Source: Candidatus Enterousia sp.
GTDB taxonomy: Bacteria > Pseudomonadota > Alphaproteobacteria > Rs-D84
Direction of reading: 5' to 3'
Assembly (NCBI GenBank): GCA_045630455.1
Contig: JAZQTD010000039.1
Location: forward strand, 6,498 to 70,497
Length of the DNA stretch: 64,000 bases
Program-made: the position numbers and the translations under genes
Notes under the pieces: generated by a model
The model's input: the letters and a program-made list of their open reading frames with translations, nothing else
What the model was told of the DNA's origin: nothing
The model's database searches: none
Shown: piece by piece, positions 17,756-33,262 of the stretch
How the letters are laid out: every line of letters begins with the position of its first letter
Position numbering within the stretch: position 1 is the first letter of the stretch

Positions 17756-18619
17756 TTATAGTGTTTTTTTACGAAAATCAAGTATTTTCTGTGCAGTGGC
17801 AAAGTTTTTTATCCCTTTTGCGCGTGCTTGTAAATATGCCTGCCCAAAATCGCGTCCAATTCGCCCGATGTCATGCGCATCATCAGAAAACAGCACAGGA
17901 ACATTGTGTTCAGCCAGCATTTCTATAATTTTTGGGCCTGGGTATGGCTGGCCTGTGCCAATTTTATATCCGCTGGTATTAATTTCTACAGGGATTCCAG
18001 CATTTGCAATGATTCCAATTGTTTCCTTTTTTAAGTCGTCCCATTTGGCTTGCTCGCCAAGTTTCTTTTTCTTGGGCAAATCCAGGTGTGCCAGCCAGTT
18101 GAACATACCAGTCTGGGCCAAACGTTGTACATTCAGCCAATATCTTTTTAACATATCATCACGTGCTTGCGAGTCAACAACTGCTATGTCATGCACGTTG
18201 CACACAGTACCACCGTATTCAACAAAGTGTGCCGAACCTATCAGATAGTCTGGTTTTAACATCTCGCATACACGTGCAAATCCGTCACACCATTCATTTG
18301 TTGGGAAATAATCAACTTCCATCCCGCACAAAATGCGCATATCTGGATTTTCTGTCTGAAGGCGGCGCAATTCTTCATAATGTGGCAAGAATTTTGCCAG
18401 TGCTTCATCAAAACTGTTGTTATACATTGCGCTATAACCACGCGCCATCGCAGCCCCGAACATTTTAGTTCGTTTAATTTCAGGATGCACGATAAAGTGA
18501 TTTGATATCCCAATCGTCTTAAAGTCTTTGTCACGCGCCGCAGCAATCATTTCTGCGGATGTATTTTTTCCATCAAATCCAATCGTATGTGTGTGTAATG
18601 TAAAGTCTTGTATTATCAT
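17756..18619 (-). CDS. PHP-domain phosphoesterase (histidinol-phosphatase HisJ family-like)
   Basis: LHTHT...DG near the N-terminus, internal GSAH, and C-terminal SDDAHD. These are typical PHP metal-binding motifs. Confidence 0.7.
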   Translation of the reverse strand: MIIQDFTLHTHTIGFDGKNTSAEMIAAARDKDFKTIGISNHFIVHPEIKRTKMFGAAMARGYSAMYNNSFDEALAKFLPHYEELRRLQTENPDMRILCGMEVDYFPTNEWCDGFARVCEMLKPDYLIGSAHFVEYGGTVCNVHDIAVVDSQARDDMLKRYWLNVQRLAQTGMFNWLAHLDLPKKKKLGEQAKWDDLKKETIGIIANAGIPVEINTSGYKIGTGQPYPGPKIIEMLAEHNVPVLFSDDAHDIGRIGRDFGQAYLQARAKGIKNFATAQKILDFRKKTL

Positions 18620-19512
18620 TATATGATTCTTTTCTTGATTGCGCCAAATAATGCAAACCCAACAAGCAATACCATAATCGCAATGAATATGGATACCGCT
18701 ACCTTAGGATTTTCTGCGAATGGCAGATGAACATTCATTCCGTAGTATCCAACAATAACCGTTGGAATCACCAAGACAATATTCCACATAGTCAGCCAAT
18801 TAATGTTTGTATTCGAATCCATATTGATAACACTTTCGAATGTTTCCTTAATCGCTTTTAGCATTTTGCCGTATGTTGCCACGACTTCGGTTGCCTGACC
18901 TAATTCGATGCGTGCATCCTCAGCCAGTTCTTGGGCCTCGTCCGTTTTAACAAATCCACGAACTTTTTCCAGTTTGTCTAACACCGCGACATTACCCTTA
19001 ATCCCAGCCATAAACAAAGTATAACTGTTTTCAACCTCAAGCAAATCCATTAGTTCTTTTTTGCGGATGCGTTCTTGTAATACATGCTTAGATGCGACAA
19101 CACGTTTGTTTAATTCTTTTAACATGCGCAGGTACGATTCCGCAATATAGTACATAATGTTCAAGATAAATTCTTCGCGTGATGTCTTTTCAGAACGCTT
19201 GATTTTATCCAATATATCACAACGCTTGCGACAAACGGTTATAACGCGATTGGATGTGTAAATAATAGACAGCGGTTCGGTATGCCACAGTGTATCTGTT
19301 TCACGATTAATAATCGGGAAACGGACGATTATAACCTTGTAATCATCTTCGACTTCAAATCGTGGCTGTTCATCGGGGTCTAAAATGTCCGAGATAGTAT
19401 CCTCGTCAATTTTGTATTCGTTTTGCAGTTTTTCAAAATCTTTATGATCGGGGTTTCCAACATTTATCCATGAAAAAGTTTTTAATTTTTCTGTCACGAA
19501 CATTCGGTCCAC
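18619..19512 (-). CDS. corA: CorA-family magnesium/cobalt transporter
   Basis: 297 aa with a YGMNV (GMN) motif between two C-terminal TM helices. Confidence 0.8.
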   Translation of the reverse strand: MDRMFVTEKLKTFSWINVGNPDHKDFEKLQNEYKIDEDTISDILDPDEQPRFEVEDDYKVIIVRFPIINRETDTLWHTEPLSIIYTSNRVITVCRKRCDILDKIKRSEKTSREEFILNIMYYIAESYLRMLKELNKRVVASKHVLQERIRKKELMDLLEVENSYTLFMAGIKGNVAVLDKLEKVRGFVKTDEAQELAEDARIELGQATEVVATYGKMLKAIKETFESVINMDSNTNINWLTMWNIVLVIPTVIVGYYGMNVHLPFAENPKVAVSIFIAIMVLLVGFALFGAIKKRII

Positions 19513-19636
19513 CTTTGAATATGATTGACGTATTATTTTACATTGTTAATTTCAAAATGCAAGGTTTTCCCGCGGAATATAAACCCGTATATTAAAACTT
19601 TTCATCATGCTAGGATAACTGTATCGGAGACTTCAA

Positions 19637-20086
19637 ATGCCAAAACAAAAAGAATTTCAAACAAACTCTTTTACAATCGCACACTATATTTTGCTGTTTA
19701 TGGTTGTTGTCACATGCGCCAGTGTTGTGGTGTGGCTGATAATGGACCGATATAAAGCCCAGCAAGAATCCAGAACAAATATCACATATATCATAAAAAA
19801 CGACCCATGTGTTGCCCAGACCCGTGATGCAGTATCCCGTATGTGGGCATATAACCAAGAACTGATTCCCACCAGATATAAAACAATGGCAGATACATAT
19901 GCGAATAATGCTGTTATGGGGCGTATCACAGGATACTGCAACGGCATACCGTTTACGTGTCGTGCAGGACAGTTGCGCCGTACTTGTGACCCGTGTGCAA
20001 CTGAGTCTGGGCGCAACATGGCAAAGAAATACCATATTGCCGATATGGTACGCGCAAACTGTGGGTATGAATTGGATAAAAAATAA
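19637..20086 (+). CDS. hypothetical membrane-anchored Cys-containing protein
   Basis: 149-aa ORF with one TM (ILLFMVVVTCASVVVWLI). No family recognised. Confidence 0.45.
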   Translation: MPKQKEFQTNSFTIAHYILLFMVVVTCASVVVWLIMDRYKAQQESRTNITYIIKNDPCVAQTRDAVSRMWAYNQELIPTRYKTMADTYANNAVMGRITGYCNGIPFTCRAGQLRRTCDPCATESGRNMAKKYHIADMVRANCGYELDKK

Positions 20087-20128
20087 TTTGTTTTTTATTA
20101 ATATATGCTATATCATTGCGAACATTGT

Positions 20129-20205
20129 CGGGGTGTAGCTCAGCCTGGTAGAGTACTTGCATGGGGTGCAAGGGGTCGCATGTTCGAATCATGTCACCCC
20201 GACCA
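20129..20205 (+). tRNA. tRNA-Pro (anticodon GGG), CCA encoded
   Basis: CGGGGTG TA GCTC AGCCTGGTA GAGT A CTTGC ATGGGGT GCAAG GGGTC GCATG TTCGAAT CATGT CACCCCG A CCA. G37 is as expected for Pro. Confidence 0.9.
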
Positions 20206-20335
20206 TATAAATTCAAATCGGCCTGGTGCCCGTTTTTTTATTTCGGAATTCTTGCATATTGTGGGGCGGGTGGCGGTGGTGTATTATGTATTTGTCCGGA
20301 CATAAACAATAATCACAAAAGAAAAAGGATAGAAA

Positions 20336-20443
20336 ATGTCAAAAAGCGATGATAAACAATGTAAATGCAAAAACTGTCAGGGCTTAACTGTGGGCTGTGA
20401 TGGCAAGAAATCTGGGGACGAAAAAAAGAAGTGTGATAAATAG
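20336..20443 (+). CDS. small Cys/Lys-rich peptide (35 aa)
   Basis: Not in the ORF track. RBS aaaAAGGAtagaaaATG. Product MSKSDDKQCKCKNCQGLTVGCDGKKSGDEKKKCDK, followed by the hairpin CACCGGCAattttttGCCGGTAttttt. Confidence 0.35.
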   Translation: MSKSDDKQCKCKNCQGLTVGCDGKKSGDEKKKCDK

Positions 20444-20562
20444 AAAAACACCGGCAATTTTTTGCCGGTATTTTTATGTATTTTGTGCTTGCACGAATCG
20501 GATAAATATTACTAGTATGCGCATATCAGTTTTAACACAATCAACGAAGGGAGAAAACTGTT

Positions 20563-20937
20563 ATGATAGCAGGCATCGGAATTGATTTAGTCGAATGCGA
20601 CCGCTTTTTAGATTGGTCTGCATTCAAAAAACAGCGCATATTCACAAAGAAAGAATTGGAATACGCCGATAATGATAATGCAAATTCTGAAAAGCATTTG
20701 GCAAATTTCTGGGCCGCACGTGAAGCTTTCTTAAAGGCTTTGGGGACTGGTTTTGGCGAAGACATTGCGTTTTCGGATGTGTCGGTTGTGCATAATGATT
20801 TGGGCCGCCCAGAGTTATTGATTTCTGGTGGTGCAAAATCAACATTGAAGCAAATTGCAGGAACTGATGCACATATCCATCTGTCTATTACCGATCAGGG
20901 CGATTATTGTGCAGCAATGGTTGTGATTGAAAAATAA
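20563..20937 (+). CDS. acpS: holo-[acyl-carrier-protein] synthase
   Basis: 124 aa: MIAGIGIDLVE..RF, FT..E, AAREAFLKALG and the H.SI(T/S)D motif. Confidence 0.9.
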   Translation: MIAGIGIDLVECDRFLDWSAFKKQRIFTKKELEYADNDNANSEKHLANFWAAREAFLKALGTGFGEDIAFSDVSVVHNDLGRPELLISGGAKSTLKQIAGTDAHIHLSITDQGDYCAAMVVIEK

Positions 20938-20965
20938 ATCCCCCGCCAGACGGCGGGATTTTTAT
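20936..20965. terminator. bidirectional rho-independent terminator at left edge of phage-like cluster
   Basis: aaATCCCCCGCCagacGGCGGGATtttt. Confidence 0.7.
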
Positions 20966-21219
20966 TTGATAACTGCGCTTTTGATAAGGTTCAAATCTTC
21001 CTTGATATCGTCTATTTTTATTTGAATCTGCCCTATTCCTGTTTCCAGCACAGTTGTGCGATTTTCAAGTGCAGTTATACGAACGTCTGCACGTTCAATC
21101 TGTGCCAACGATGAATCTTGACGTGCAACCCAGTAAATTACGCCCGCAATAAAGGCGATTAAAAACCAGCTGTCACGCAAAAAATCCACAATTCCTGTGG
21201 CACTGGGTTGCATTGTCAT
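20962..21219 (-). CDS. phage-cluster small membrane/coiled-coil protein
   Basis: 85 aa with one TM (WFLIAFIAGVIYWV) followed by a coiled coil. Starts 2 nt after the upstream gene. Confidence 0.5.
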   Translation of the reverse strand: MTMQPSATGIVDFLRDSWFLIAFIAGVIYWVARQDSSLAQIERADVRITALENRTTVLETGIGQIQIKIDDIKEDLNLIKSAVIK

Positions 21220-21221
21220 TT

Positions 21222-21416
21222 CTATTTCCCCCGTTCTGTAAAATTTTCAATTTGATGAACTAAGGCTCGCTGGGCCTCTAGCCCACGCAGTTCTGCATCG
21301 GTCGCGTTCGCCCCCAGGACCCGTTCAATCGTTATCTTGCGCAAATGCGCCAGTACACGCACCCCAGACGGGGTGCAAAATGTACGTGCAAAATCGTGTT
21401 CTATGTTTTCAGACAT
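21222..21416 (-). CDS. small phage protein, Bbp19-like pattern
   Basis: Start set at MSENIEH. FCTPSGVRVLAHLRK...LRGLEAQRALVHQIENF resembles the small portal-adjacent phage family (F.t..G..VL..L....EG.R.lv..I). Recognised from memory only. Confidence 0.45.
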   Translation of the reverse strand: MSENIEHDFARTFCTPSGVRVLAHLRKITIERVLGANATDAELRGLEAQRALVHQIENFTERGK

Positions 21417-21420
21417 TTGA

Positions 21421-22650
21421 TTAGACCCCCGCGACACTTTCCAGCGCAACCATCTGCGCAATCGGTGCAATGTATTTTAATTCTGCATCACCGTGCAGGG
21501 TTATTGGCTCTATCTGTCCACGGCGGGATAAAATCTGCAATCCACGTTCACACAGTGGACGAATAAATTCGTGCAACAGACGTCCATAAGTCGCCCCCAA
21601 AATACGCATCATATCAGAATTACGTGCCATTATTTCGGTTGCTGTCATTTCTTTCTCAGACAACAGCCCCAGTCTGTCCGCCAATAATGTGTGACGAATC
21701 CGTTCACGCAGGTCTTTTAATATAATCTGGGATACGTCAAAATTCGCACCAGATGTCAATGGGGTCAAACCCGAGGACCCAACCGCCTTGGGTATTATCG
21801 CCCCTGGGGTCAGGTTAATATTATTCAAATTTATAACACCGTCATCGTCTGCCATCCAGATGCCAGACACTGAAATTGTCGCGTTTTTCAAGACCAGTTC
21901 TACGACCTTGTTTGCGGTTTTAATATCTGGCAATGCACGCAAGACCGGGCTACGACCATACGTTTCACCAGACATCACAGACCAGCGGAAAACTAAATAC
22001 GGATTTGTTTCGAACGTACCCGTTGCCACAATATTATTTTCAATATCACCACCCACATCCAACCAGGCTGTAAATTCAGTACCAACCAAACTCTGTACCA
22101 GTTTTATTGGTGTGTCTGGGCTCTGGTTTAGTGTGTCACGCAAATTTGCCGGCAATGTCCAAGCGGGATATTTCTGGACGGCCTCGGCCAGTGGCATTGA
22201 TGTTGTGTGAAATACTGCGTTTGGTAAAATCGCAATGTCTGACATCGGAATCGCAGTGAAAGAAAATGCAGACGATGCGCCAATCGGATTTTCAGACATA
22301 AACAAACACGCTGTACCCAGTACGACCAAGTCCATATAGCACTGGTGCACGGTGGTGTAAAAATTAGAATCATTCAAATGCGCACGCAGTGCTTGTGTCG
22401 CATATTCTGGGTCTGGGGATAAATCACTTTCGGGCACCAGATTCAGCCACAATGATTCAGGCGGGGTCAGTAATGTATAAAGCGATGCTGCCAGATTATC
22501 CACTGCATCAGACGCAGTCGCATCAAACAGGGTCGCCATATCTTCATCGGTTGATGGTGCAGTATATCGGCGTGCCGCATCCCAGCGGTTTAACCATGGC
22601 GCACGATTATCCAGCGCACGTTTATATAATTGCTCAAGGTTTTGTTGCAT
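21421..22650 (-). CDS. phage portal (head-to-tail connector) protein, T7 gp8-like
   Basis: YKRALDNRAPWLNRWDAARRYTAPS aligns with T7 gp8 YERLKNDRAPYETRAQNCAQYTIPS. GETYGRSPV aligns with GESYGRSYI. At 409 aa it is shorter than T7 gp8 (536 aa). Confidence 0.85.
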   Translation of the reverse strand: MQQNLEQLYKRALDNRAPWLNRWDAARRYTAPSTDEDMATLFDATASDAVDNLAASLYTLLTPPESLWLNLVPESDLSPDPEYATQALRAHLNDSNFYTTVHQCYMDLVVLGTACLFMSENPIGASSAFSFTAIPMSDIAILPNAVFHTTSMPLAEAVQKYPAWTLPANLRDTLNQSPDTPIKLVQSLVGTEFTAWLDVGGDIENNIVATGTFETNPYLVFRWSVMSGETYGRSPVLRALPDIKTANKVVELVLKNATISVSGIWMADDDGVINLNNINLTPGAIIPKAVGSSGLTPLTSGANFDVSQIILKDLRERIRHTLLADRLGLLSEKEMTATEIMARNSDMMRILGATYGRLLHEFIRPLCERGLQILSRRGQIEPITLHGDAELKYIAPIAQMVALESVAGV

Positions 22651-22678
22651 TTATGTTTCCTTTTGGTTTTGTGTTGTT

Positions 22679-23518
22679 CTATATCTTGAAATCTGTATTT
22701 GCAGAAAAGGTTTTTAGGTTGCGACTGATTGGGTGCAGTGCGATTGGCATCTGGGTAATCGCCCCCGCCAATGCATCCAGACCGTCATCGTGCCCCACCC
22801 CGCCAATCGGTGACCACCCCAGCATTTCTGCAACCAATGGTGTTTGCCGGATACGCATATGTGCATACAGGTGACCCGACGTTAACAATGGTTCAATCGC
22901 ATCCAAGATACGGTCTGATTTATTCCGATTGTTGGTGATTTTATTTACGTATATGTTTTGTCCGCTGCGGGCCGCTACATCACGCATAATTTCAGGCAAT
23001 GCGTTTCCCAATCCATTGGTTTCAATCGTTATGCGGCGCATACTGTATCGGTGCATAAAATCAATCACCATTTCGCACTGGGTATTCAGTGGATGTGTCT
23101 CGTTGTCTGATACGTGCATATAAATCACATCGTGGATAAAGACATTGTGGTTTTTATCATCACGATAGATGAGCACACAGACACTGTGGTCTGATTTATG
23201 GCGGCCACTGGACGGATCCCAATAGACAGATGCGCCAGTTATCATGTGTGGTCCCAGACGCGCCGAATGTATATCCAGCATATCTTCGTAAAAATGAATT
23301 TGTCCGGGGTCAAGGCGAATCCGATCGGCCGGCACATAATCCAGCATCATTTGTGATGAAAAGTGGCGTGGTCCGACAATTTGACGCATCTGATTTATCT
23401 TTTCAATCGGGAAAAGTTCCGGCCATGCGGGCGTGCCATCTGGGCTAATTATCGGAATTTTCAATATTTTATAGCCCGATAAAAAAGGCATTGAAAAAGC
23501 ATTTTTTTCATATACCAT
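22679..23518 (-). CDS. terminase large subunit, C-terminal fragment (lid plus RNaseH-like nuclease)
   Basis: SGYKILKIPIISP aligns with T7 gp19 RGYTTIIWPALYP. Nuclease acidic residues are in context: VYWDPSSGRHKSD, ITIETNGLG, HDDGLDALAGAI (T7: HDDRLDALA). The start is ambiguous (Met codons at 23545, 23518 and 23491); the ORF is open to 23620. Confidence 0.85.
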   Translation of the reverse strand: MVYEKNAFSMPFLSGYKILKIPIISPDGTPAWPELFPIEKINQMRQIVGPRHFSSQMMLDYVPADRIRLDPGQIHFYEDMLDIHSARLGPHMITGASVYWDPSSGRHKSDHSVCVLIYRDDKNHNVFIHDVIYMHVSDNETHPLNTQCEMVIDFMHRYSMRRITIETNGLGNALPEIMRDVAARSGQNIYVNKITNNRNKSDRILDAIEPLLTSGHLYAHMRIRQTPLVAEMLGWSPIGGVGHDDGLDALAGAITQMPIALHPISRNLKTFSANTDFKI

Positions 23519-23543
23519 TGGCGTTAAGGAAAAGGATTTTGAC

Positions 23544-25100
23544 ATGGATTTTACCCCTAAGACTTTGCCAACTAATCTGGAAGCAGAACAGGCAGTATTG
23601 GCCGCAGTGTTAATGAACAATCGCGCTTTAGAACGTGTGTCAGAATTCTTGACATCGGAACACTTTTCACACCCCGCCCACCAGGAAATCTATAAACTGG
23701 CGGAACGTCAATTCGCAGCGGGTATCCCATTTGATATCATCACGGCGAAAACATATCTGGAACAGCAAGGCGTTCTGGAATCTGTTGGTGGTGTTGACTA
23801 TTTAACCCAATTATCAGGCGCAGGTGCAACAGTCGTTAATGTTGAACAATATGGTCGCATCGTGCACGAAAACGCACAAAGACGGCAATTAATCAATCTG
23901 GCCCAAGATATTATGGACGGTGCGTTTGTCGAAGATTTGGACAACCCAGTTGAAACCCAGATTCAAGTTGCGGAACAAAAACTGTTCGATTTGGCATCCA
24001 AAGGATCATCCGAACGAGATGTTGTTTCAATTGCAACTGCATTACAGGCCGCCCTGCGAGAGGCTGAAACAGCATACAAAGCCGATGGACAATTGTCTGG
24101 TTTAACAACGGGATTAACCGCACTGGATAAATCAATCAGTGGTTTGCATCATTCCGACCTTATTATTGTCGCAGGTCGACCAGCGATGGGTAAAACGACA
24201 CTTGCGATGAATATTGCATTCAATGCAGCAAATGCAATTCACTATGGCACTGCGAACAAGAACTATAAGGGTGCAGTTGTGTTTTTTAGTCTTGAAATGT
24301 CCCATTCCCAGTTGGCGGCACGTGTTTTGTCGTCCCAATCAAAGGTGCCTGCATCCGCAATGCGTGAAGGTAATTTGACAGACGAAGATATGCTAAAAAT
24401 GACACAGTACGCCGATGCAATTAGCAAAATCCCACTGTGTATTGATGATACACCTGGGATGTCTGTGCCAATGATGCGTACACGTGCAAGACGTTTATCA
24501 CGCAAATATGGTGGAATCGCACTGATTGTTGTTGACTATTTACAGCTTATGACATCCCCTGGGGGCAAGCGCAGTGACAACCGTGTTCAAGAAATTTCTG
24601 AGATTACACGAGGCCTCAAAATGCTGGCCAAGGAATTGGATGTTCCGGTTATTGCCCTGTCACAGTTGTCACGTAGCGTTGAACAGCGTGACGACAAACG
24701 TCCACAATTGGCGGACTTGCGTGAATCTGGGTCTATTGAACAAGACGCCGACATTGTTATGTTCACATATCGTGAAGAATACTATTTGGCGAACCGCAAT
24801 CCGTCTGAACGTATTTCTAACACAACAAATTCTTCGATGGTAGAATCATGGCAAAAGCGCTATGAACAATCCCGTGGCAAAGCAGATATTATCATTGGTA
24901 AAAACCGTCACGGCCGTCCAGAAACTGTGCGCACGGCGTTCTTTGGCGATTACAGCTTGTTCGACAATCTGCCCGATGAATTTGACATACGTGGCGAAAA
25001 TATCACACCACAGCCAACGACCAGTGTACCATTGGATGGATCTGAATTTGCGCCAACACCAATTGACGCGGATGCAATCCCAGACGATATGCCGTTATAA
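23544..25100 (+). CDS. dnaB: replicative DNA helicase DnaB
   Basis: 518 aa. N-terminus LPTNLEAEQAVLAAVLMNN, Walker A GRPAMGKTT, Walker B IVVDYLQLM, and the SQLSR and RESG.IEQDAD motifs. RBS AAGGAAAAGGA. Confidence 0.95.
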   Translation: MDFTPKTLPTNLEAEQAVLAAVLMNNRALERVSEFLTSEHFSHPAHQEIYKLAERQFAAGIPFDIITAKTYLEQQGVLESVGGVDYLTQLSGAGATVVNVEQYGRIVHENAQRRQLINLAQDIMDGAFVEDLDNPVETQIQVAEQKLFDLASKGSSERDVVSIATALQAALREAETAYKADGQLSGLTTGLTALDKSISGLHHSDLIIVAGRPAMGKTTLAMNIAFNAANAIHYGTANKNYKGAVVFFSLEMSHSQLAARVLSSQSKVPASAMREGNLTDEDMLKMTQYADAISKIPLCIDDTPGMSVPMMRTRARRLSRKYGGIALIVVDYLQLMTSPGGKRSDNRVQEISEITRGLKMLAKELDVPVIALSQLSRSVEQRDDKRPQLADLRESGSIEQDADIVMFTYREEYYLANRNPSERISNTTNSSMVESWQKRYEQSRGKADIIIGKNRHGRPETVRTAFFGDYSLFDNLPDEFDIRGENITPQPTTSVPLDGSEFAPTPIDADAIPDDMPL

Positions 25101-25130
25101 GTGATTATTTACTTGCGCTTGCCTTAAAAA

Positions 25131-25158
25131 TTGACTATTATTTTGTCAAGATTATACT
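25131..25158 (+). promoter_or_regulatory. sigma70-like promoter with embedded inverted repeat upstream of the HTH regulator
   Basis: TTGACT-16 nt-TATACT. The inverted repeat TTGAC(n9)GTCAA spans the -35 box and spacer and could be an operator. Confidence 0.45.
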
Positions 25159-25175
25159 TTTTAAGGAGTTTCGTA

Positions 25176-26183
25176 ATGGCCCAAGAAGAAATCATTTTTC
25201 CAAATAATATCAGAAACATCCGCCTGAAAAATGGTATGAAGATGACAGAACTGGCACGCCGGACGGGGTTGTCGCTGTCTGCAGTTTCCAAAATTGAAAA
25301 GGGCGTTCGTCGCTTGAATCAAAAGCAGTTATTAAATATCTGTAATATTTTGGGTTGCAAATTATCCGACATTTTCATCAAAGCTTCAGATGAAGTGGCT
25401 GAACAGTGGCAAACTGAAATCAAACGCCGTTTGAACGATAACGAAGACGGTGGCTTGAAAATTTTCGGCAGTGGGCTGCGCAAAATTCGTCAGCAAACAG
25501 GTAAAACAATCGCACGCGCCGCCAAAGATGCGGGGATGACATTGTCTGTATACCATAAAATCGAAGTAGGACAGCGCGAAATCTATGAAAATGAAATCGA
25601 GCCATTAGCAAAATCGTTCGCGATGACTGTTGAAGGGATGTTCGACAAAATCGCAACTTTATATAAAAGTGGCGATTTGAACAAACATATTAACAAGGTT
25701 AAAGAACGCGTAAAATCTGTTCTGGAACCCGGCAATCCATTATCCAGCATTGATATGGCTGGCGGTTTGTATGGCGCAAAACTGTATGAAAGCGCGCGTA
25801 AAAAATTGGTTCCTGTATTTGGTATGCCATCGGGTAAATCAATCGCCTTCAGAAAATCTGATAAAACTATGATTGTTGCCCCAATGTCTTTGGAAGGCCG
25901 CAGTGGTATTTATGCAGTTATGCCAAATTCTAAACGCCTGGGTGGATTTATCCCAGAAAAATCATATGTTTTCGTAGATGTTGACGCCCCTGTTGCGGTG
26001 GGTGACTTGGCAGTGTGCATTGACACAGATTTCAATACACTGGATTCAGAAACAACTGTGAATGCACAAATTGCTATAGTGCGCCAGGATTCCAAGAGCA
26101 AAATCTATGGTCAAGTATCAAGCCCAGAAGAAAAAATTAACGCGCAAACAATGCACAAAGTTATTATGATTGTGATGGAATAA
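25176..26183 (+). CDS. double XRE-type HTH regulator with CI/LexA (S24)-like C-terminal domain
   Basis: RBS AAGGAG. Two HTH_3-like units (IRNIRLKNGMKMTELARRTGLSLSAVSKIEKG; LRKIRQQTGKTIARAAKDAGMTLSVYHKIEVG). The C-terminus follows the S24 pattern (LVPVFGMPSG...YAVMPNSKRL..FIPEKSYVFVD...VGDLAV). Confidence 0.65.
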   Translation: MAQEEIIFPNNIRNIRLKNGMKMTELARRTGLSLSAVSKIEKGVRRLNQKQLLNICNILGCKLSDIFIKASDEVAEQWQTEIKRRLNDNEDGGLKIFGSGLRKIRQQTGKTIARAAKDAGMTLSVYHKIEVGQREIYENEIEPLAKSFAMTVEGMFDKIATLYKSGDLNKHINKVKERVKSVLEPGNPLSSIDMAGGLYGAKLYESARKKLVPVFGMPSGKSIAFRKSDKTMIVAPMSLEGRSGIYAVMPNSKRLGGFIPEKSYVFVDVDAPVAVGDLAVCIDTDFNTLDSETTVNAQIAIVRQDSKSKIYGQVSSPEEKINAQTMHKVIMIVME

Positions 26184-26219
26184 GACCATCGCAATCATGC
26201 CCGGAGAGAGAGGTTCAAT

Positions 26220-26876
26220 ATGAAAGCACGTATCACAGCAATCGCCCAAAAGTTGCTTAACCTGTATCGTCAAGAACACGTTATTATTGGTGGTTGGGCC
26301 ACAGTCAATCCTGTGTTTGTTAACGAAGCAGATGATAATGTTATCAACGAGCTTCGCGAAATGCCGACTGGCAAAATGCTGGTACAACATATCGAGAATC
26401 TGCGCAGCGGAAAAACACCAATGGATTCTATTGAACCAGAACTGGTTCCATACGGCGGTATGATGGCACAGTCAGATTTGGTCAATGCAGTACTAAGCCG
26501 TCAAGAATTAACCGAACTGCAATCTGTGCTAAATACGTTTACCCCAGATCAAAATGGATTGGATGCAATAGAAAAACTGGGCGCAGTTCGTCGATTTGGC
26601 GACGAATGGCAAAATGCGATACATGATGCACTGAAATCACACCCAGATTTACAACCTAAATGGGACATCGTCACCAAAACATATCGTGCATATCAATTGT
26701 GGGATACAGCAAACCAAACTATTAACACACCACTGGACGAACGCGCACGCGCAGAAATCCAAGCAGAAATGCCAGAATATGAAACATATCTGCCGATGTT
26801 TGGGGATGCTGGCAATGAATTACTGGCACGATTGCGCACATTTATCAGCTCAATAAAGACCGAAGACAATGCCTAG
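26220..26876 (+). CDS. hypothetical protein (last gene of the cassette)
   Basis: 218-aa ORF with a good RBS (GGAGAGAGAGG). No family recognised. Its TAG stop shares the palindrome CTAG with the stop of the terminase N-fragment on the other strand. Confidence 0.5.
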   Translation: MKARITAIAQKLLNLYRQEHVIIGGWATVNPVFVNEADDNVINELREMPTGKMLVQHIENLRSGKTPMDSIEPELVPYGGMMAQSDLVNAVLSRQELTELQSVLNTFTPDQNGLDAIEKLGAVRRFGDEWQNAIHDALKSHPDLQPKWDIVTKTYRAYQLWDTANQTINTPLDERARAEIQAEMPEYETYLPMFGDAGNELLARLRTFISSIKTEDNA

Positions 26877-27478
26877 TCTTTATCACTGGTGCGATATATC
26901 GTATCCATTGTGTGCGGTGTACCGATATAAATCATTGCGCCAGCAGGCGATAAAATAAAATCTAATTCACGCAATCTTTCGCGCAGATTTTCACGCTTTT
27001 GTGGGGTGTTTGATGTATTTGGCACTTCTACATCATCACAGATTATTAAATCTGCACGCATACCGGTTATATTTCCGTAAATACCCTGACATATTACAGA
27101 TGGTTCACGTATGCCAACAGGACGATTTACTGTGATATGCCCCGATGCCCATTCACGCCGTGATGCAGGTATCAAATCTCCGCACCACGGATGATTTTCC
27201 AAGATATGTCGAATATGTGATACCATACGCGATGCCAGACCGCTGTGCGCCGACAAAATCAGGATTCGTATCGACGGATACAAATACAATGTGCAGGCTG
27301 CGAAAATTCCGACAACTGTTGATTTACCAGAGTGCCGAAACGCCATCAGTAGTCCACGATGCATATCATCGTTCAAAACATCGACCAAAAAATTCATAAT
27401 TTTCCGATGATGTGATGGCGTAGTCTGACCCAGCACCCTATTCCACGCATCCATAAAATTACAATAATCCGTAATCAT
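26873..27478 (-). CDS. terminase large subunit, N-terminal ATPase fragment
   Basis: Colinear with T7 gp19 residues ~30-235. Walker A LLMAFRHSGKST (T7 ILQAFRGIGKSF), ILILSAH (ILIVSAS), Walker B RADLIICDDVEVPN (RADIIIADDVEIPS), and IYIGTPHTMDTIY (IYLGTPQTEMTLY). It ends 5 codons later at a stop. Start candidates are 27523, 27478 and 27454. Confidence 0.85.
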   Translation of the reverse strand: MITDYCNFMDAWNRVLGQTTPSHHRKIMNFLVDVLNDDMHRGLLMAFRHSGKSTVVGIFAACTLYLYPSIRILILSAHSGLASRMVSHIRHILENHPWCGDLIPASRREWASGHITVNRPVGIREPSVICQGIYGNITGMRADLIICDDVEVPNTSNTPQKRENLRERLRELDFILSPAGAMIYIGTPHTMDTIYRTSDKD

Positions 27479-28007
27479 CGCATTCGGCGTCTGTGGTCGT
27501 ATCCGTAATGTATCCATAGTCATTTATCAAATTCGGCAACGCGTTATCCAGTACCATTATCAGATTTTTATACAATCCCAATACGCCACCACCTGTTAAT
27601 TTGTCTTGGATTAAACTGTTTGTGTATTCCAAGAAACTTATTACATTCGTATGCGTGTTGCGCCACGCTTCGATATCGACATCGGGCGCATGCAGGTCTT
27701 TTAAGGCTTCGATTAAAAAGTTAAAGTCTGCGTTCAAGTGTTCTGGATCTATTTTTGCAGTTGGCTGATAGTCCACAACACGTGACAGCGCAACCATTCG
27801 ATAAATATCAATCCGCGTATCTGCAGCTGGCGCATTATTAAATACAATTCGCCCACCATCAAAAGACGGATTTTCAACAACTGAATATTCATCGGGGCTT
27901 AAAACAACCTCATTAAACGCAACATGAACATCAGCCGCCTGAAAAAAAGGAAATGCAAATTCAAATTCGGTTGCTTCGCCGTCTGCAATATAAGATATTT
28001 TATGCAT
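27459..28007 (-). CDS. tail-fibre protein, N-terminal (tail-attachment) domain only, T7 gp17-like
   Basis: Start at MHKISYIADG with RBS GGGGGA. Y.ADGEATEFEFAFPF...VHVAF...YSV...IVFNNAP...IDIYR...RVVDY...LNADFNFL follows the T7 gp17 N-domain pattern. Only 182 aa against 553 aa in T7. Confidence 0.65.
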   Translation of the reverse strand: MHKISYIADGEATEFEFAFPFFQAADVHVAFNEVVLSPDEYSVVENPSFDGGRIVFNNAPAADTRIDIYRMVALSRVVDYQPTAKIDPEHLNADFNFLIEALKDLHAPDVDIEAWRNTHTNVISFLEYTNSLIQDKLTGGGVLGLYKNLIMVLDNALPNLINDYGYITDTTTDAECDDYGLL

Positions 28008-28023
28008 ATCGTTCCCCCTGTGC

Positions 28024-28371
28024 TTATCCAACCAGATCATCAAATCGACTAAGTATTGTTTTTATCAGATTTGGTTTTTTAGCCTTGGTTGATTTCAATT
28101 TTTGCAAATTAGCATTGCGCTTTTCTGTGTATGGTTTTTCTGTTTCTGACTTTAGTCGCGCCAGAACCGCCCCCTGGGTCAGACCACGCGCAGATACGCC
28201 AGATGCACCATATTTTGCACGTTGACTGGCCAAGGCTTTTTTAACCAGATTTGTTTTTTCAGCTTCGTCCGATGCCATTTGTTTCAAGATTTCTTGACGG
28301 GTGGATTTTGCTTGTTTTTTTTCATCTTGGTAATCCAAGATTTCACTAACATCTGATACCAATTGTCCCAT
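28024..28371 (-). CDS. hypothetical Lys-rich phage-cluster protein
   Basis: 115-aa ORF in the position occupied by internal virion proteins in T7-like genomes. No family recognised. Confidence 0.4.
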   Translation of the reverse strand: MGQLVSDVSEILDYQDEKKQAKSTRQEILKQMASDEAEKTNLVKKALASQRAKYGASGVSARGLTQGAVLARLKSETEKPYTEKRNANLQKLKSTKAKKPNLIKTILSRFDDLVG

Positions 28372-28403
28372 AATTTTTTCCTTTGGTTTATTAAGTTGAT
28401 AAA

Positions 28404-30119
28404 TTAAACACTGTATCTGCCGGATACATTGACTGACAAGACTGTGATTGGTTGTGGTTCATTGCCGTGGATTATCCAGTATGGTTCTGTACACGTTTTT
28501 GTCGTGCCCAAAACATTTACAGATACATCACCTGTAAAGCCGATGTGTTCATCTGCATAAATTTCATTCGGCATGCTAACGCGTGCGCCATTTATAGATA
28601 CAGACTTGGTATTTAACAGGCGTAGTGATATCTTGCGAATACGCAGGGCTGTCACGTTATGACCCGATGCACGAAACGGCAAAGATGCAGCACGAAGCGC
28701 AAAGTTATATTTGCCAGCATCGTCCAATGCATCATCTGCAAAGCATTCCAGATTGTATGTGCCGTCACGCAGTGTCACGACATATGTCGAACCGTCAACA
28801 ACCGCCACAGAAATAAAAGAACCGTATGTTTTATACCGCCCCCACGCAGATATTCCCAATGCGCTGTTCTGGTTCAAAACTGCCATATCGCCATCTGCGG
28901 TCACAACGAACAACTGGGACGTTGCATCGTTATACGACATATCAATTGGCGATGTCATTATATGCTTTGCAAATGCGCAAAGGTCTGTGGCGTTATAGTT
29001 TTGCCCCAAATCGTCCAACGACAATTCACGAATATCATGCAATGTCTTGGACACGAACACAGTCGCACCTTCTATCTTTTGCGGTGCCAGATATCGTGTG
29101 GCACACGAACCAACCGATGTATGCTGCTTAACATCAACAGATGACGGGGTCAGTGGTTTACTGGAAATTGCCCATTCGCCATCAGACGTTAGAATTTGCA
29201 GGTTATCGCCGCTGACCACGGTACAAATTTGCTGGCGCTGTTGTGATAAAAGTGTCAAGAAAATCGCCTCGTCATCCAGTCCGGTGCCAACATCAAAGTT
29301 TTTATGTTGCCCCACTTTGGACATCCAAATGCCGGCGGGATATGAACGCGAACCACCAAAGACCAGTCTGTCTTGATGAAATGTGATACTGCATGGCCAA
29401 CCACGCTGGGTGCTAAATGCAGCCTCGTACCAATTAGACACAGAGGTGCTGGGCAAACTGTATGTGCCGTTTACGTATGCGATAACTTCTGTGGAACTGA
29501 TGTATTCATCAATTATCCACTGTTTATCCAAAAGCAAGAATCGCGCACGAACATATTCAGGTGTCCAGAAATCTGAACTGGTTGTAAACTTGGCATAGTT
29601 ATTGCCACGATCACTGGTAGATACTGTGATTTTAATATCAGATGTATCTTCGAACCGCATAAACGGTATGTACATAGACATATCTGCGTCATTTATCGCA
29701 AAGATAAAGTCCGTCAATTCAAACCCAGTGGATGTCTTGCGCAAGATTTGTGGCTGGTAATCTGGGTGCACAAATATCATCGTATCAAAACGCTGGGCGT
29801 ATTGCAGATTCTGTAAATCATCTTGCCCCCATGGGACTAGCAAATCCGCAACACGCGTATCCCCAGAATATATCTGGACATGGCCGGCACTTAGCACCAG
29901 AATATAGTTTTCGTTTTCTCCCACAGAAAAAGCGGCCAGACGTGAGTTATCACGCAAGGTCGTGATATGCTTTAGTCCACGTCTGCGCGTTAATCCACCA
30001 CTGGGCAGCACATCCATATTTTCCAGATGTGATAAACCGTTTATATCATCACGTGCATAGAATTCAGGTGCGACCTCGCCATGGGCAAACGAATTTTGTG
30101 TATAAATAAAATTTGCCAT
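28404..30119 (-). CDS. tail tubular protein B (nozzle), T7 gp12-like
   Basis: GEVAPEFYARDDINGLSHLENMDVLPSGGLTRRRG aligns with T7 gp12 GGISQQPDILRYPDQGSRQVNGWSSETEGLQKRPP. FHQDRLVFGGS...SKVGQHKNF aligns with FFRNRLGFLSG...SRTAKYFNF. 571 aa. Confidence 0.75.
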   Translation of the reverse strand: MANFIYTQNSFAHGEVAPEFYARDDINGLSHLENMDVLPSGGLTRRRGLKHITTLRDNSRLAAFSVGENENYILVLSAGHVQIYSGDTRVADLLVPWGQDDLQNLQYAQRFDTMIFVHPDYQPQILRKTSTGFELTDFIFAINDADMSMYIPFMRFEDTSDIKITVSTSDRGNNYAKFTTSSDFWTPEYVRARFLLLDKQWIIDEYISSTEVIAYVNGTYSLPSTSVSNWYEAAFSTQRGWPCSITFHQDRLVFGGSRSYPAGIWMSKVGQHKNFDVGTGLDDEAIFLTLLSQQRQQICTVVSGDNLQILTSDGEWAISSKPLTPSSVDVKQHTSVGSCATRYLAPQKIEGATVFVSKTLHDIRELSLDDLGQNYNATDLCAFAKHIMTSPIDMSYNDATSQLFVVTADGDMAVLNQNSALGISAWGRYKTYGSFISVAVVDGSTYVVTLRDGTYNLECFADDALDDAGKYNFALRAASLPFRASGHNVTALRIRKISLRLLNTKSVSINGARVSMPNEIYADEHIGFTGDVSVNVLGTTKTCTEPYWIIHGNEPQPITVLSVNVSGRYSV

Positions 30120-30133
30120 TGTTATCCCCCCAA

Positions 30134-30664
30134 TTAAAAACGTGTATCTATTAATGAAAATTTATCTATCTGGGCGGTGGGGCTGGTGGTGCTGTCGATA
30201 AATTTAGCAGATTGTAATTCTGATTCATATAATGCTGTCAGCATTCTGAATACAGTCTGGTCGCCAGATAATGGTATACAAAATTCCATTGCTAACTTGG
30301 TCGCCACCAGTGACACAAAATAACTGGGGTATTTATCAACGTCAATACGGACACACGCAGTTATTGTTATCTTGTCAAATGGTGCAATAATTTTATTTCC
30401 GACAATGTCGCCGTTTGATTTTAATACACGCAAAACATTGTTCGGGATTACAAAGTTCCCGTCTGAATCAGGCACAAGATCTAATTGACGAATTGCGAAA
30501 CACCACGGATGCGATGCAATCAGCGCATCTGTTATTGGATCAAACAGTGTTCGTGCCAACTGGGCTGCGGCGGCATCATCACTGAGTGATTGAATTGGTG
30601 CTTCGCCCAGTTTCAATAACGCCATTGAACATAAGTCTATTTTTGTAAGCATATTTGCCCCCAT
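30134..30664 (-). CDS. tail tubular protein A (adaptor), T7 gp11-like
   Basis: IDLCSMALLKLGEAPIQSLSDDAAAAQLARTLF...HPWCFA aligns with T7 gp11 [31 protein letters not shown]...RGWTFN. 176 aa. Confidence 0.75.
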   Translation of the reverse strand: MGANMLTKIDLCSMALLKLGEAPIQSLSDDAAAAQLARTLFDPITDALIASHPWCFAIRQLDLVPDSDGNFVIPNNVLRVLKSNGDIVGNKIIAPFDKITITACVRIDVDKYPSYFVSLVATKLAMEFCIPLSGDQTVFRMLTALYESELQSAKFIDSTTSPTAQIDKFSLIDTRF

Positions 30665-30720
30665 TAAATTCGATAAAAATTATCGGTGACGCAAATATGC
30701 GCCACCGTTTTATAAAGCCC

Positions 30721-30954
30721 CTAGGCCAATGCACCAGTTGTGACATTGCTGGCGGTGATGTTAATCTTTTTGATTGTTGTGTTATCAGATGCGTTGATAA
30801 TTACAACGTCACCAATATTCATCAATGTCTTAACATCGTTAAAGTATCCAGTTGCAGAAATAGTCGCAACTGTTTCAGAACTGGATGCATAGTGCCACAA
30901 TGTGAACCCGTTTGCATACGCAATAACCGACAGATTTTTATTTTGAAATGCCAT
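30721..30954 (-). CDS. hypothetical small phage-cluster protein
   Basis: 77-aa ORF between the capsid and adaptor genes. No family recognised. Confidence 0.4.
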   Translation of the reverse strand: MAFQNKNLSVIAYANGFTLWHYASSSETVATISATGYFNDVKTLMNIGDVVIINASDNTTIKKINITASNVTTGALA

Positions 30955-30998
30955 AAGATTTATCCTTTGGTTAAAAAAATTATTTGAACACGTGATAT

Positions 30999-31826
30999 TT
31001 AAGCAGCCTTGGCATCACTGCATTTAACGCGAACAATACCATCGTTGTCGATTAAGACTGCACCTTGGGACATACTGTTGCTGATAAAGTGCGCTGCGCG
31101 TTCACCGTGCCAAGAAATATCTGTTTTGACTTCCTGGCCACAGGCGTGCCCAATGCTGGATGCGTGATAGATAAAGCAGTCGCGATTAGATTCACTAAAT
31201 GGCAAACCGTTATGCAATACCCACGTGATACCCAACCATTTTTTTGCTTCGAAACCGTTTAACAATGGTGTCGCATCGCCAACATAGTCTGCAGATACAA
31301 ATTCATCCATTGCCAACAGTTCGTTCCACTGGTGTACGCCAATCACAGCAAAACGACGACCATCATCTGGAACATCGTTTGTATTCAGAACTTCGACCGC
31401 AGATAAAATCAAATCTTTGGTTAAACCGGTCGTATAATCACCAACAGACAATGTTGATGCATTCATTGCATCGATAATTAATTCGTCTGTTTTGCGACCC
31501 AATGCGTATGCACCCGCAGATGCAACAACACGGCGTTCATCAATATTGACTTTTAATTCATCCAATGCATCAACCCAGTCACCTGCATAATAATCCATCA
31601 ACAAGCATTCCACAGGTTCGTGATTCAAATTCATCACTGGTACAATACCGTGACGTGATTTTGTGCTGGCAGTGCCACGACCAACTTTTTGGAATGTCGT
31701 AGATGCACCAACAACCCCAGATTTACTGCGAACAGTTGAACGCAGTTTTGTACCCATCTGTTGATAGGCTAAATGAACATCGGCTTCGAATTGTTTTACG
31801 AAAACCTGATCAATTGAAATGGACAT
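30999..31826 (-). CDS. major capsid protein, T7 gp10-like
   Basis: Start MSISIDQ with RBS AAGGAAAAA. VFVKQFEADVHLAYQQ...VRSKSG...FQKVGRG...DELKVNIDERRVVASAGAYALGRKTDELI parallels T7 gp10 LFLKVFGGEVLTAF...VRSISSGKSAQFPVLGRT...YDVRSEYTSQLGESLAMAADGAVL. Confidence 0.85.
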   Translation of the reverse strand: MSISIDQVFVKQFEADVHLAYQQMGTKLRSTVRSKSGVVGASTTFQKVGRGTASTKSRHGIVPVMNLNHEPVECLLMDYYAGDWVDALDELKVNIDERRVVASAGAYALGRKTDELIIDAMNASTLSVGDYTTGLTKDLILSAVEVLNTNDVPDDGRRFAVIGVHQWNELLAMDEFVSADYVGDATPLLNGFEAKKWLGITWVLHNGLPFSESNRDCFIYHASSIGHACGQEVKTDISWHGERAAHFISNSMSQGAVLIDNDGIVRVKCSDAKAA

Positions 31827-31948
31827 ATTTTTTTCCTTTGTTTGGTTAAATAAAAAAAGCGCAACGCGCGACAAATTTTGTAAAACGGTTATGCAAAATG
31901 CGCCGTGATTACAAAATGAATGCGGGGTCTGGGGGACTTGTCCGCAAT

Positions 31949-32020
31949 AAAAAATTCAGTCAGACTGATTAGTCATCTGACTGAAATTTTCAAAATAAAA
32001 ACCCGAACAAACGTTCGGGT
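31949..32020 (-). terminator. two tandem rho-independent terminators downstream of the AKP-rich gene
   Basis: On the minus strand: ACCCGAACgtttGTTCGGGTttttatttt (32020-31991), then TCAGTCAGAtgactaatcagTCTGACTGAatttttt (31984-31949). Confidence 0.6.
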
Positions 32021-32042
32021 AAATTAATAATACGAATTTATA

Positions 32043-32495
32043 TTATTTCTTTTTTGCGCATTTTTTTGCACATGCTTTTTTTGCAACTGGTTTTGCAGCT
32101 ACTTTTTTAACAGCTACTTTTTTTGCAGGTGCTTTTTTAGCAACTGGCTTTTTAACCGCTACTTTTTTTGCAACTGGTTTTTTTGCAGCTGGTTTCGCAG
32201 CAACTTTTTTTGCAGGTGCTTTTTTTGCAACTGGTTTTTTAACTGCTACTTTTTTAGCAACTGGTTTTGCAGCTGGTTTTGCAGCTACTTTTTTTGCAGG
32301 TGCTTTTTTTGCAACTGGTTTTTTAACTGCTACTTTTTTAGCAACTGGTTTTGCAGCTGGTTTAGCAGCTGGTTTAGCAGCTACTTTTTTTGCAGGTGCT
32401 TTTTTTGCAGCAGGCTTTTTAGCCGCTACTTTTTTAGCAACTGGTTTTGCAGCTGGTTTCGCAGCTACTTTCTTTTTGAACAGGCGGAATACCAT
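32043..32495 (-). CDS. Ala/Lys/Pro-rich histone H1-like basic repeat protein
   Basis: 150 aa made almost entirely of [28 protein letters not shown]-type units. RBS GAAGGAGAG. It has its own downstream terminators. Confidence 0.7.
32060..32470. repeat. imperfect in-frame tandem repeat, ~84-nt (28-codon) unit, ~4.5 copies
   Basis: Visible periodicity of ...tttttttgcaggtgctttttttgcaactggttttttaactgctacttttttagcaactggttttgcagctgg.... Boundaries are approximate. Confidence 0.8.
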
Positions 32496-33261: not shown

Positions 33262-33262
33262 T

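Follow-up and report, generated by a model that had tools for sequence, protein, structure and literature searches.

Large terminases are the textbook single-chain motors of viral DNA packaging. In the T7-type enzyme (gp19; NF033889; PDB 4BIJ and 8DGC chain E), described by PF03237 with PF22530/PF17289, one polypeptide of about 480–590 amino acids (aa) combines an N-terminal ASCE ATPase, marked by Walker A, Walker B, and motif III, with a C-terminal RNase-H-like nuclease containing an acidic triad. The 64,000-nucleotide (nt) stretch of the Candidatus Enterousia sp. contig JAZQTD010000039.1 analyzed here (the window) encodes a colinear enzyme of the same family, as judged by sequence and predicted fold. 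It differs from the T7-type enzyme in three respects. First, it is encoded as two polypeptides of 201 and 288 aa, named TerL-N and TerL-C, whose open reading frames (ORFs) are separated by 3333 bp. Second, the break lies inside the ATPase domain and not at the ATPase/nuclease boundary. Third, TerL-C has about 20 new N-terminal residues that are encoded antisense to a host promoter. Confidence in the description of this split, structural as well as evolutionary, is very high. The sequence data also make it likely that the two chains together act as a functional packaging enzyme in a domesticated particle resembling a gene transfer agent (GTA).

Several described systems are close to this arrangement. 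The split NrdA of Aeromonas phage Aeh1, reportedly described by Friedrich and colleagues in 2007, and the T4 topoisomerase gp39/gp60 are said to be "genes in pieces". A further case is nrdD, split by a homing endonuclease (PMC4837284). As in the present locus, an insertion made two ORFs, the products of which are thought to reassemble; here, however, the insert is a three-gene cellular operon on the opposite strand instead of a homing endonuclease or an intron, and the split has become fixed in the chromosome of an entire bacterial clade. The terL gene of Jug jumbo phages is likewise fragmented, with group I introns dividing it into two or three pieces that are co-transcribed and spliced to one mRNA (PMC12880540), whereas the Enterousia gene has no intron and its intervening DNA is antisense coding sequence. 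The herpesvirus terminase also has its ATPase and nuclease on more than one polypeptide, with a division of labor between pUL56 and pUL89 of human cytomegalovirus (PMC6897398). Those subunits are non-homologous, whereas here one ancestral chain was broken within the ATPase domain.

The gene cluster around the terminase is comparable to GTAs (RcGTA, BaGTA, and FpGTA), which are likewise phage-derived clusters of head, tail, and packaging genes, too small for a phage, lacking integrase and replication genes, and vertically inherited under purifying selection among housekeeping genes. According to its authors, FpGTA, a podovirus-like GTA-like element of Faecalibacterium, is the first to be described from the human gut and also the first of podovirus-like morphology (PMC12946183). 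The ancestry of RcGTA is HK97-like siphoviral, in contrast to the T7/BPP-1-like podoviral ancestry found here. The Enterousia cluster also differs from the described GTAs in residing in host genomes below 1 Mb and in having a two-piece terminase with a nested essential-type operon. Members of Enterousia belong to the order Rs-D84 and have genomes of 0.75–1.0 Mb, without the tricarboxylic acid cycle or respiration (PMC12306168). No report of a large terminase split at the protein level, or of a GTA or prophage in Enterousia or Rs-D84, was found in the literature searched. The finding joins a "gene in pieces" with a domesticated phage cluster, and its unusual part is the antisense essential-type operon with mutually embedded signals.

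The two terminase halves and the genes between them

The terminase genes and the intervening features are listed below, with coordinates given for the window.

22679–23545, minus strand: TerL-C, 288 aa, with a new N-terminal tail, the next ATPase beta-strand, the lid subdomain, and the RNase-H-like nuclease
23486–23546, plus strand: dnaB promoter-like block, with TTGAAA and TACCAT separated by 16 nt (23491–23518), the Shine-Dalgarno sequence AAGGA, and CATG; the opposite strand encodes TerL-C residues 1–20
23544–25100, plus strand: dnaB, replicative helicase of the cellular (alphaproteobacterial) type (NF006606, TIGR00665, PF00772, PF03796)
25176–26183, plus strand: XRE-family regulator with two HTH_3 domains (PF01381 twice) and a further C-terminal domain without a family
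26220–26876, plus strand: 218-aa protein, the last gene of the cassette, whose stop codon shares CTAG with the stop codon of TerL-N
26873–27478, minus strand: TerL-N, about 201 aa, the ATPase Rossmann core with Walker A, Walker B/catalytic Glu, and motif III (GTPH)

An earlier note on this DNA had described the terminase as interrupted by a 3333-bp antisense cassette, and this was confirmed: three plus-strand genes span positions 23544 to 26876 (26876 − 23544 + 1 = 3333). The palindromes reported at the two junctions were present as well, with CATG (23543–23546) supplying both start codons and CTAG (26873–26876) both stop codons. The complete ORFs on the minus strand extend over 26873–27523 (216 aa) for TerL-N and 22679–23620 (313 aa) for TerL-C. 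The true start of TerL-N is probably Met16 (27478), because the upstream codons hold stops in relatives. The start of TerL-C is assigned to the ATG within CATG (23545); the 25-codon TTG extension upstream of it is a wobble-matched antisense frame of the conserved dnaB N-terminus.

All of the motifs quoted in the note (FRHSGKST, DLIICDDVE, IYIGTPHTMDTIY, WDPSSG, IETNG, and HDDGLDALA) were found, and its proposal that the two ORFs are halves of one terminase was borne out by profile coverage and by one-piece alignment. Against the NCBIfam profile of the T7-type terminase (NF033889), TerL-N covers positions 1–191 with 219.8 bits, above the cutoff of 150, and TerL-C covers positions 230–500 with 104.7 bits on its own, below the cutoff. 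The nuclease of TerL-C matched PF22530 (33.6 bits, cutoff 27) and PF17289 (26 bits, cutoff 22.6), and TerL-N matched the T7 and PhiV-1 TerL structures with E = 5e-22. The concatenated halves (aa 17–511) formed a single tblastn piece on intact T7-like TerLs and could also be aligned to the PhiV-1 and T7 TerL structures. Their summed length of 489 aa (201 + 288) compares with 477–510 aa in intact relatives. The alignment with the nearest of these relatives had nothing missing, in agreement with the claim that almost nothing of the terminase had been lost; TerL-N ends with "...IGTPHTMDTIYRTSDKD", and TerL homology picks up in TerL-C at about "PFLSGYKILKIPI". The stop codon of TerL-N follows six codons after TIY, not five as had been counted.

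The fused N+C chain was modeled with AF2 using an alignment of 77 intact homologues, resulting in a predicted local distance difference test (pLDDT) score of 92 and a predicted TM score (pTM) of 0.86, whereas single-sequence input gave a pLDDT of only 34. The sole low-confidence stretch of the model, residues 200–222, is the junction (TerL-N ends at residue 201). A Foldseek search with the fused model retrieved the full-length terminases of PhiV-1 (E = 7e-26), T4 (gp17), D6E, and Sf6, as well as terminase nuclease domains. The ATPase-only domain of P74-26 was aligned over about 285 columns; therefore, the ATPase domain runs some 80 residues into TerL-C. According to the model, TerL-N comprises the Rossmann core through motif III, and TerL-C comprises the strand 227–231, the lid helices 248–267, and the nuclease from about residue 300. 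The segment bounded by the invariant residues Tyr195 and Leu229 is unconserved in the 77 intact homologues, where it measures 9–22 aa. Its Enterousia equivalent has 33 residues, made up of the 6-residue TerL-N tail and about 20 new TerL-C residues. The break falls in a permissive, length-variable surface loop after motif III, within the ATPase domain.

A different bacterium, on contigs of 311 kb and 1.47 Mb (L051, 10001–11480, and L052, 10001–11441), encodes a TerL of this clade that is divided at the same loop. Its halves (210 aa plus 284 or 271 aa) are encoded by adjacent ORFs with an 8-nt overlap, keep all motifs, and have no cassette between them. There was no other phage structural gene within 10 kb. 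A rough neighbor-joining tree, with long branches and without support values, placed these TerLs apart from the Enterousia ones. An apparently independent second case, this split supports the view that the loop after motif III is permissive to fission. The pair is located beside variable defense-like genes (OLD-TOPRIM/AAA_15 and Peptidase_M78), and its C piece opens with a variable PKFPE repeat.

The nearest intact TerL (P0143, 477 aa) is encoded in a compact cluster syntenic with that of Enterousia (L054, 400–8600; also L055 and L056). The gene order in L054 is scaffold, capsid (59% identity), small protein, tube A, tube B, T7_gp14-like gene, TerL, 104-aa gene, and Hydrolase_2, and the cluster directly abuts host yidD, rnpA, and ruvB. 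No portal gene was present on the L054 contig. This cluster represents the unsplit sister state and may itself be a sister domesticated element.

The description of the cassette helicase as a canonical DnaB was supported by its NCBIfam scores: it passed NF006606 (604 bits, cutoff 540) and TIGR00665 (508 bits, cutoff 385) and failed phage_DnaB (TIGR03600; 418 bits, cutoff 499). The dnaB gene is the most conserved in the region, with the lowest ratio of nonsynonymous to synonymous substitutions (dN/dS, 0.02–0.055). Together with its retention in the two decayed loci described below, this lends indirect support to a role as the sole, essential replicative helicase. The ORF of the XRE regulator covers 25131–26183 on the plus strand, its start at 25176 being placed by upstream stops in relatives, and the protein is 75–93% identical across loci. 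It had been called a CI/LexA-like regulator; the regulator part of this name was retained on account of the two XRE-type helix-turn-helix (HTH) domains, whereas the LexA part was not, as no S24/LexA peptidase was detected by Pfam, NCBIfam, or PDB sequence search. The best sigma-70-like match of the region, TTGACT and TATACT with a 16-nt spacer (25131–25158, plus strand; 10 of 12 consensus positions), is found in the intergenic space between dnaB and the HTH gene, and the HTH and 218-aa genes may have their own promoter in addition to that of dnaB. The 218-aa protein had no match in Pfam, PHROG, NCBIfam, or PDB; it shows 55–78% identity across loci and a dN/dS of 0.10–0.16.

Restoration of a single chain was considered at the level of DNA and at later stages. 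Programmed intervening elements (skin in sigK, the nifD element, and prophage "regulatory switches") are likewise inserts of several kb with colinear halves kept in register. The earlier note had raised the idea that the cassette may be excised or inverted in such a manner to restore terL, and the halves indeed share strand and register and follow each other in N-to-C order, so that a precise deletion would give an open full-length TerL. In nearly all loci, however, the longest string common to both junctions had 6–7 nt, matching the 6.7 nt expected from shuffled sequences, and direct repeats in the window were likewise at chance level. No repeat was conserved between species, and neither att-like sites nor a recombinase in or beside the cassette were found. 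Furthermore, in contrast to the known elements, the cassette carries a cellular-type, essential-type dnaB, and each half possesses a conserved start or stop codon of its own that is matched to the neighboring gene. The idea was left unsupported by these data and retains a very slim chance.

The halves could instead be rejoined as RNA or protein, through trans-splicing of a group I/II intron, a split intein, or translational bypass, for which the intron-split, splicing-restored terL of Jug phages (PMC12880540) would be a precedent. Against this, Rfam at gathering thresholds revealed only four tRNAs and no intron or ribozyme in the window, and the 3.3 kb between the halves are filled by three antisense genes under purifying selection. 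Since TerL-N stops 6 residues past the last homologous residue and the approximately 20 extra residues of TerL-C derive from the dnaB promoter, neither half could accommodate part of an intein. Such rejoining is hardly credible.

Conservation, selection, and decay of the split terminase

A scan of one genome per GTDB species yielded 44 loci, all from Ca. Enterousia or gut Alphaproteobacteria metagenome-assembled genomes (MAGs) originating from humans, ruminants, chickens, and other animals. As determined by tblastn, the gene order, including the antisense cassette, was identical in essentially every locus of sufficient length, and four matching IMG/VR contigs had the same architecture. In about 30 of 42 loci, TerL-N and the last cassette gene have stop codons that overlap by 4 nt (CTAG or TTAA); in most others, the two stops are a few bases apart. 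The 120 best TerL-N homologues from a collection of 5.8 billion proteins were all 186–221 aa long.

Both halves evolve under purifying selection. The Nei–Gojobori dN/dS values were about 0.08 for TerL-N and 0.15–0.18 for the parts of TerL-C without overlap, compared with 0.06 for the portal, 0.04–0.06 for the capsid, 0.09–0.15 for the tail tube, and 0.04–0.06 for host acpS. The dS values were about 1 or more even between the closest genomes and about 1.5 for the TerL halves. Walker A (GKST), Walker B (DDVE), and GTPH were intact in 38 of 40 TerL-N copies, and WDP, ETNG, and DDGLDA in 43 of 45 TerL-C copies. A recent insertion that inactivated packaging, or an assembly artefact, would make the halves a pseudogene; one window alone cannot exclude it, and both halves are shorter than a normal TerL. 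Nevertheless, these junctions recur in over 40 independent assemblies of varied animal origin, so they do not result from misassembly. The dS above 1 between genomes sharing these identical junctions, together with a dN/dS of about 0.1 and intact catalytic motifs, refutes the recent insertion suggested in the note and leaves this explanation with practically no chance.

The distance matrices of TerL-C, portal, major capsid protein, and tube B correlated with that of dnaB (Mantel r of 0.73–0.90), as did that of TerL-N (0.62), with p = 0.001 in all cases. The synteny of the cluster on the lipB side was conserved wherever enough flanking sequence was present. Because the phage-gene distances track those of dnaB and this synteny is kept, the cluster fits vertical inheritance.

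Two loci are decayed. Both L010 (5000–11500) and L044 (5700–10400) have lost the tail genes, and their capsid gene directly adjoins a shortened TerL-N that carries in-frame stops. L010 also lacks the portal, and L044 has a shortened TerL-C as well. All three cassette genes (dnaB, HTH, and 218-aa) remain full-length in the two loci. The conservation of TerL therefore tracks the particle genes and not the cassette, which argues that the halves would be kept for packaging, with the cassette serving the cell. Elsewhere, the portal gene of L009 (4272–5495) contains one in-frame stop and is otherwise 82% identical, which reflects either a sequencing error or the onset of pseudogenization.

The functional two-piece terminase that the note had listed among its readings fits these results, as the split is fixed in about 40 species under purifying selection, with intact motifs and with decay only upon loss of particle genes. 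Alternatively, the halves may be conserved without acting as a joint motor, having been exapted (TerL-C as a nuclease, TerL-N as an ATPase) or kept as regulatory or 3'-end sequence of the dnaB operon. The promoter and ribosome-binding site (RBS) of dnaB lie inside the first 20 TerL-C codons, the decayed loci keep pieces abutting the cassette, and the split pair of L051 and L052 stands beside defense-like genes with no other phage genes within 10 kb; all of this would agree with exaptation. On the other side, purifying selection and conserved motifs span the full length of both halves, far past the overlaps, and TerL-N shows no raised synonymous-site conservation near the cassette. The halves co-occur with equally constrained capsid, portal, tube, and fiber genes, TerL-N decays once those genes are lost, and neither half holds a complete ATPase domain. 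Exaptation is accordingly rated as quite unlikely, and a joint packaging enzyme is preferred.

Some observations weigh against this preference. The TerL-C ORF of L010 is intact despite the loss of the portal and tail genes, which could reflect either a recent loss or packaging-independent selection on TerL-C. Neither a small terminase nor gp15/gp16-type ejection proteins were recognized in the window, although they may be present in unrecognized form or encoded elsewhere. Synonymous-site conservation revealed no promoter for TerL-C and the portal inside dnaB, where codons 1–30 were only marginally raised (0.68–0.72 vs. 0.64). The host origin of DnaB is deduced mainly from the NCBIfam cutoffs; BLAST searches against phage and plasmid/chromid collections gave identities of 45–48% with alphaproteobacterial replicon DnaBs and 41–46% with phage DnaBs, values too close to decide between a host and a phage origin. 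Finally, every genome compared is a MAG.

Embedded signals and a possible history of the locus

The 38-nt block GGCGTTGAAAAAGCATTTTTTTCATATACCAT upstream of the dnaB ATG, which includes the sigma-70-like TTGAAA and TACCAT elements, was nearly invariant in 18 of 18 aligned loci, and on the other strand the same bases encode the TerL-C residues "MSKSFSLTPMVYEKNAFS". The TerL-C codons over the dnaB promoter had a third-codon-position conservation of 0.82–0.89, against a background of 0.55, and a dS of 0.46, against about 1.5. In the opposite direction, a GGGG(T) motif located 9–13 nt upstream of the TerL-C ATG is built from Thr-Pro codons of dnaB. The base completing the TerL-C ATG is position −1 of dnaB and is invariant, and the shared-start CATG arrangement was present in all 45 of 45 loci.

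Two further candidates at this junction were rejected. A TTGACG...TATAAA pair was tried as a TerL-C/portal promoter; its spacer is 11 nt, and no call was possible. The similarity of "TPMVYEKNAF" in TerL-C to "TPHTMDTIYRTSD" in TerL-N, a possible duplication marking the insertion, is uninterpretable because the stretch is dictated by the invariant dnaB promoter. In a subgroup of four loci (L016, L018, L022, and L039; around 10078–10110, corresponding to 23519–23543 of the window), 18 nt are missing between the −10 element and the dnaB ATG. This loss takes out the AAGGA RBS, leaves about 7 nt between the −10 element and the ATG, and shortens the TerL-C N-terminus by 6–7 residues. It suggests that the dnaB mRNA of this subgroup may be leaderless.

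The following history is proposed. In the ancestor of the clade, a host segment of about 3.4 kb, including the dnaB promoter, dnaB, the XRE regulator, and the 218-aa gene, would have landed antisense in terL, at the codons of the short, unconserved, length-variable surface loop after motif III. TerL-C would then have gained a start codon at the edge of the insert and come to include about 20 codons antisense to the dnaB promoter and RBS, and genome streamlining would have stripped all spacer DNA. As suggested by the selection on both halves, TerL-N and TerL-C would reassemble non-covalently into one packaging ATPase-nuclease. The arrangement would be frozen because dnaB is presumably indispensable and its promoter and RBS are TerL-C codons, because the TerL-C Shine-Dalgarno sequence lies in dnaB codons, and because one 4-nt palindrome holds the stops of both TerL-N and the final gene of the cassette.

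The antisense nesting could in addition act as a regulatory interlock between chromosome replication and particle production, which is regarded as unlikely. No strong intrinsic terminator was found on the cluster strand between 30684 and 20958; in view of this, and since no conserved TerL-C/portal promoter was found, the expression of TerL-C, the portal, and the putative lysis protein may need read-through of the late operon across the dnaB operon. If the interlock were true, constitutive dnaB transcription would gate terminase and portal expression by transcriptional collision, and induced read-through would produce antisense RNA silencing the helicase and the XRE regulator in lysis-committed cells.

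The phage-derived cluster and its neighborhood

The cluster occupies positions 20962–33892 (about 13 kb). Its phage-derived part of about 9.6 kb contains only head, tail, portal, and terminase genes. Besides the terminase halves, the following features were annotated in the order of the minus strand.

33464–33892, minus strand: cell-wall-hydrolase-like protein, first gene of the cluster (PF07486 weak, below cutoff); syntenic at 47–81% identity in loci with sufficient flank; L054 has Hydrolase_2
32605–33261, minus strand: T7-type scaffold (capsid assembly) protein (PF05396, phrog_3742); 61–87% identity
32043–32495, minus strand: Lys/Ala-rich HC2-like protein of 150 aa (PF07382, 44.6 bits)
30999–31874, minus strand: major capsid protein (PF19821, E = 1.8e-72); 82–96% identity, dN/dS 0.04–0.06
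30721–30954, minus strand: small head-associated protein, o77 (phrog_18004); 69–95% identity; a strong terminator is next to it at 30684–30707
30134–30664, minus strand: tail tubular protein A (PF17212, phrog_394)
28404–30119, minus strand: tail tubular protein B (phrog_376, E = 3.7e-86)
28024–28371, minus strand: Lys-rich protein of 115 aa, possibly a T7 gp14-like internal virion protein; tentative, from a 40% local match to the PF24072 (T7_gp14) gene of L054
27459–28043, minus strand: short tail fiber, T7 gp17 N-terminal tail-binding domain (PF03906 weak; phrog_1640, phrog_2710)
21421–22650, minus strand: portal, T7 head-to-tail connector (PF12236, E = 9e-85); 74–90% identity, dN/dS 0.06
21222–21470, minus strand: Bbp19-like small phage protein (PF25181)
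20962–21219, minus strand: membrane protein of 85 aa, perhaps holin-like, last gene of the cluster (weak phrog_1193 and phrog_736); 69–91% identity
20941–20958, both strands: bidirectional terminator just past the 85-aa gene

The 115-aa Lys-rich protein had no family match of its own. The 150-aa protein, which is histone-H1/HC2-like, could be a DNA-binding or internal head protein, and a gap of matching size separates the scaffold and major capsid protein genes in other loci. Its gene includes three AGCTGGTTTnGCAGCT hairpin copies (repeats 32271–32466), followed by a T-run on the opposite strand.

We infer that the cluster is a compact, vertically inherited, GTA-like remnant of a T7/BPP-1-like podovirus. 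It encodes a capsid, scaffold, portal, tubes A and B, short fiber, hydrolase-like protein, and membrane protein; its size of about 9.6 kb and its lack of integrase and phage replication genes do not correspond to a self-sufficient phage, and synteny across about 40 species, dN/dS of 0.04–0.18, and Mantel r of 0.62–0.90 indicate vertical inheritance with purifying selection. It could also be asked whether the locus belongs to an active or recently active temperate phage of many Enterousia species, with the cassette as its replication/lysogeny module. An antisense XRE repressor-like gene next to DnaB resembles an immunity/replication module, the identity of DnaB to phage DnaBs reaches 41–46%, the four IMG/VR contigs are listed as viral, and a tRNA-Pro gene lies about 750 bp from the end of the cluster. 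However, T7/BPP-1-like phage genomes are roughly 38–45 kb, compared with about 9.6 kb for the phage-derived part found here. Among the profile matches in the cluster and in its flanks there was neither an integrase nor a polymerase, a primase, or an RNA polymerase. DnaB scores above the cutoffs of the cellular equivalogs, fails phage_DnaB, and is encoded by the most conserved gene of the region; the cluster co-diverges with dnaB at a conserved chromosomal position on the lipB side, and the cassette outlasts the decay of the phage genes. A temperate phage is therefore highly improbable, and the domesticated, GTA-like element remains the preferred interpretation of the cluster.

The rest of the window contains housekeeping genes (alaS, rpsD, corA, acpS, lipB, tgt, queA, era, a type II topoisomerase subunit A gene, and tRNAs). 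The block of rpsD, PHP, corA, o149, and acpS (17005–20937), within which the tRNA-Pro gene (20129–20205) is located, is inverted in the closest relatives (L001–L005) with respect to the window. Small, unrelated lineage-specific genes for Cys-rich proteins resembling signal-peptide proteins or lipoproteins were observed in L025 (9623–10294), at the same position in L029, in L021 (11137–11472), and in L033 (12191–13051). These inserts ("morons") lie between TerL-C and the portal or between the portal and the Bbp19-like gene, several of them antisense; the cluster therefore tolerates interruptions. The cumulative GC skew of the window declines steadily to a minimum near 55–56 kb, where gene orientation also switches, and increases from there. 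The cassette (23–27 kb) has a skew sign opposite to that of the cluster flanks, following its coding strand. If the skew minimum were the origin, transcription of the dnaB operon would be head-on to replication.

If the proposed reading is true, the Enterousia terminase would be the first natural two-chain viral packaging ATPase, and the cluster would be a T7-like GTA hosted by a gut symbiont of the Alphaproteobacteria whose genome is below 1 Mb. The conserved split would show that the ATPase core and the lid-plus-nuclease module can operate as separate chains, and it would offer a natural system to dissect the coupling of ATP hydrolysis to lid movement. The retention of the cluster by bacteria that have shed most of their genome argues for a real function of the particle, such as gene exchange or repair. 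The mutual embedding of the promoter of a presumably essential gene and the RBS of a phage gene would illustrate how viral DNA can become irreversibly locked into a host chromosome.

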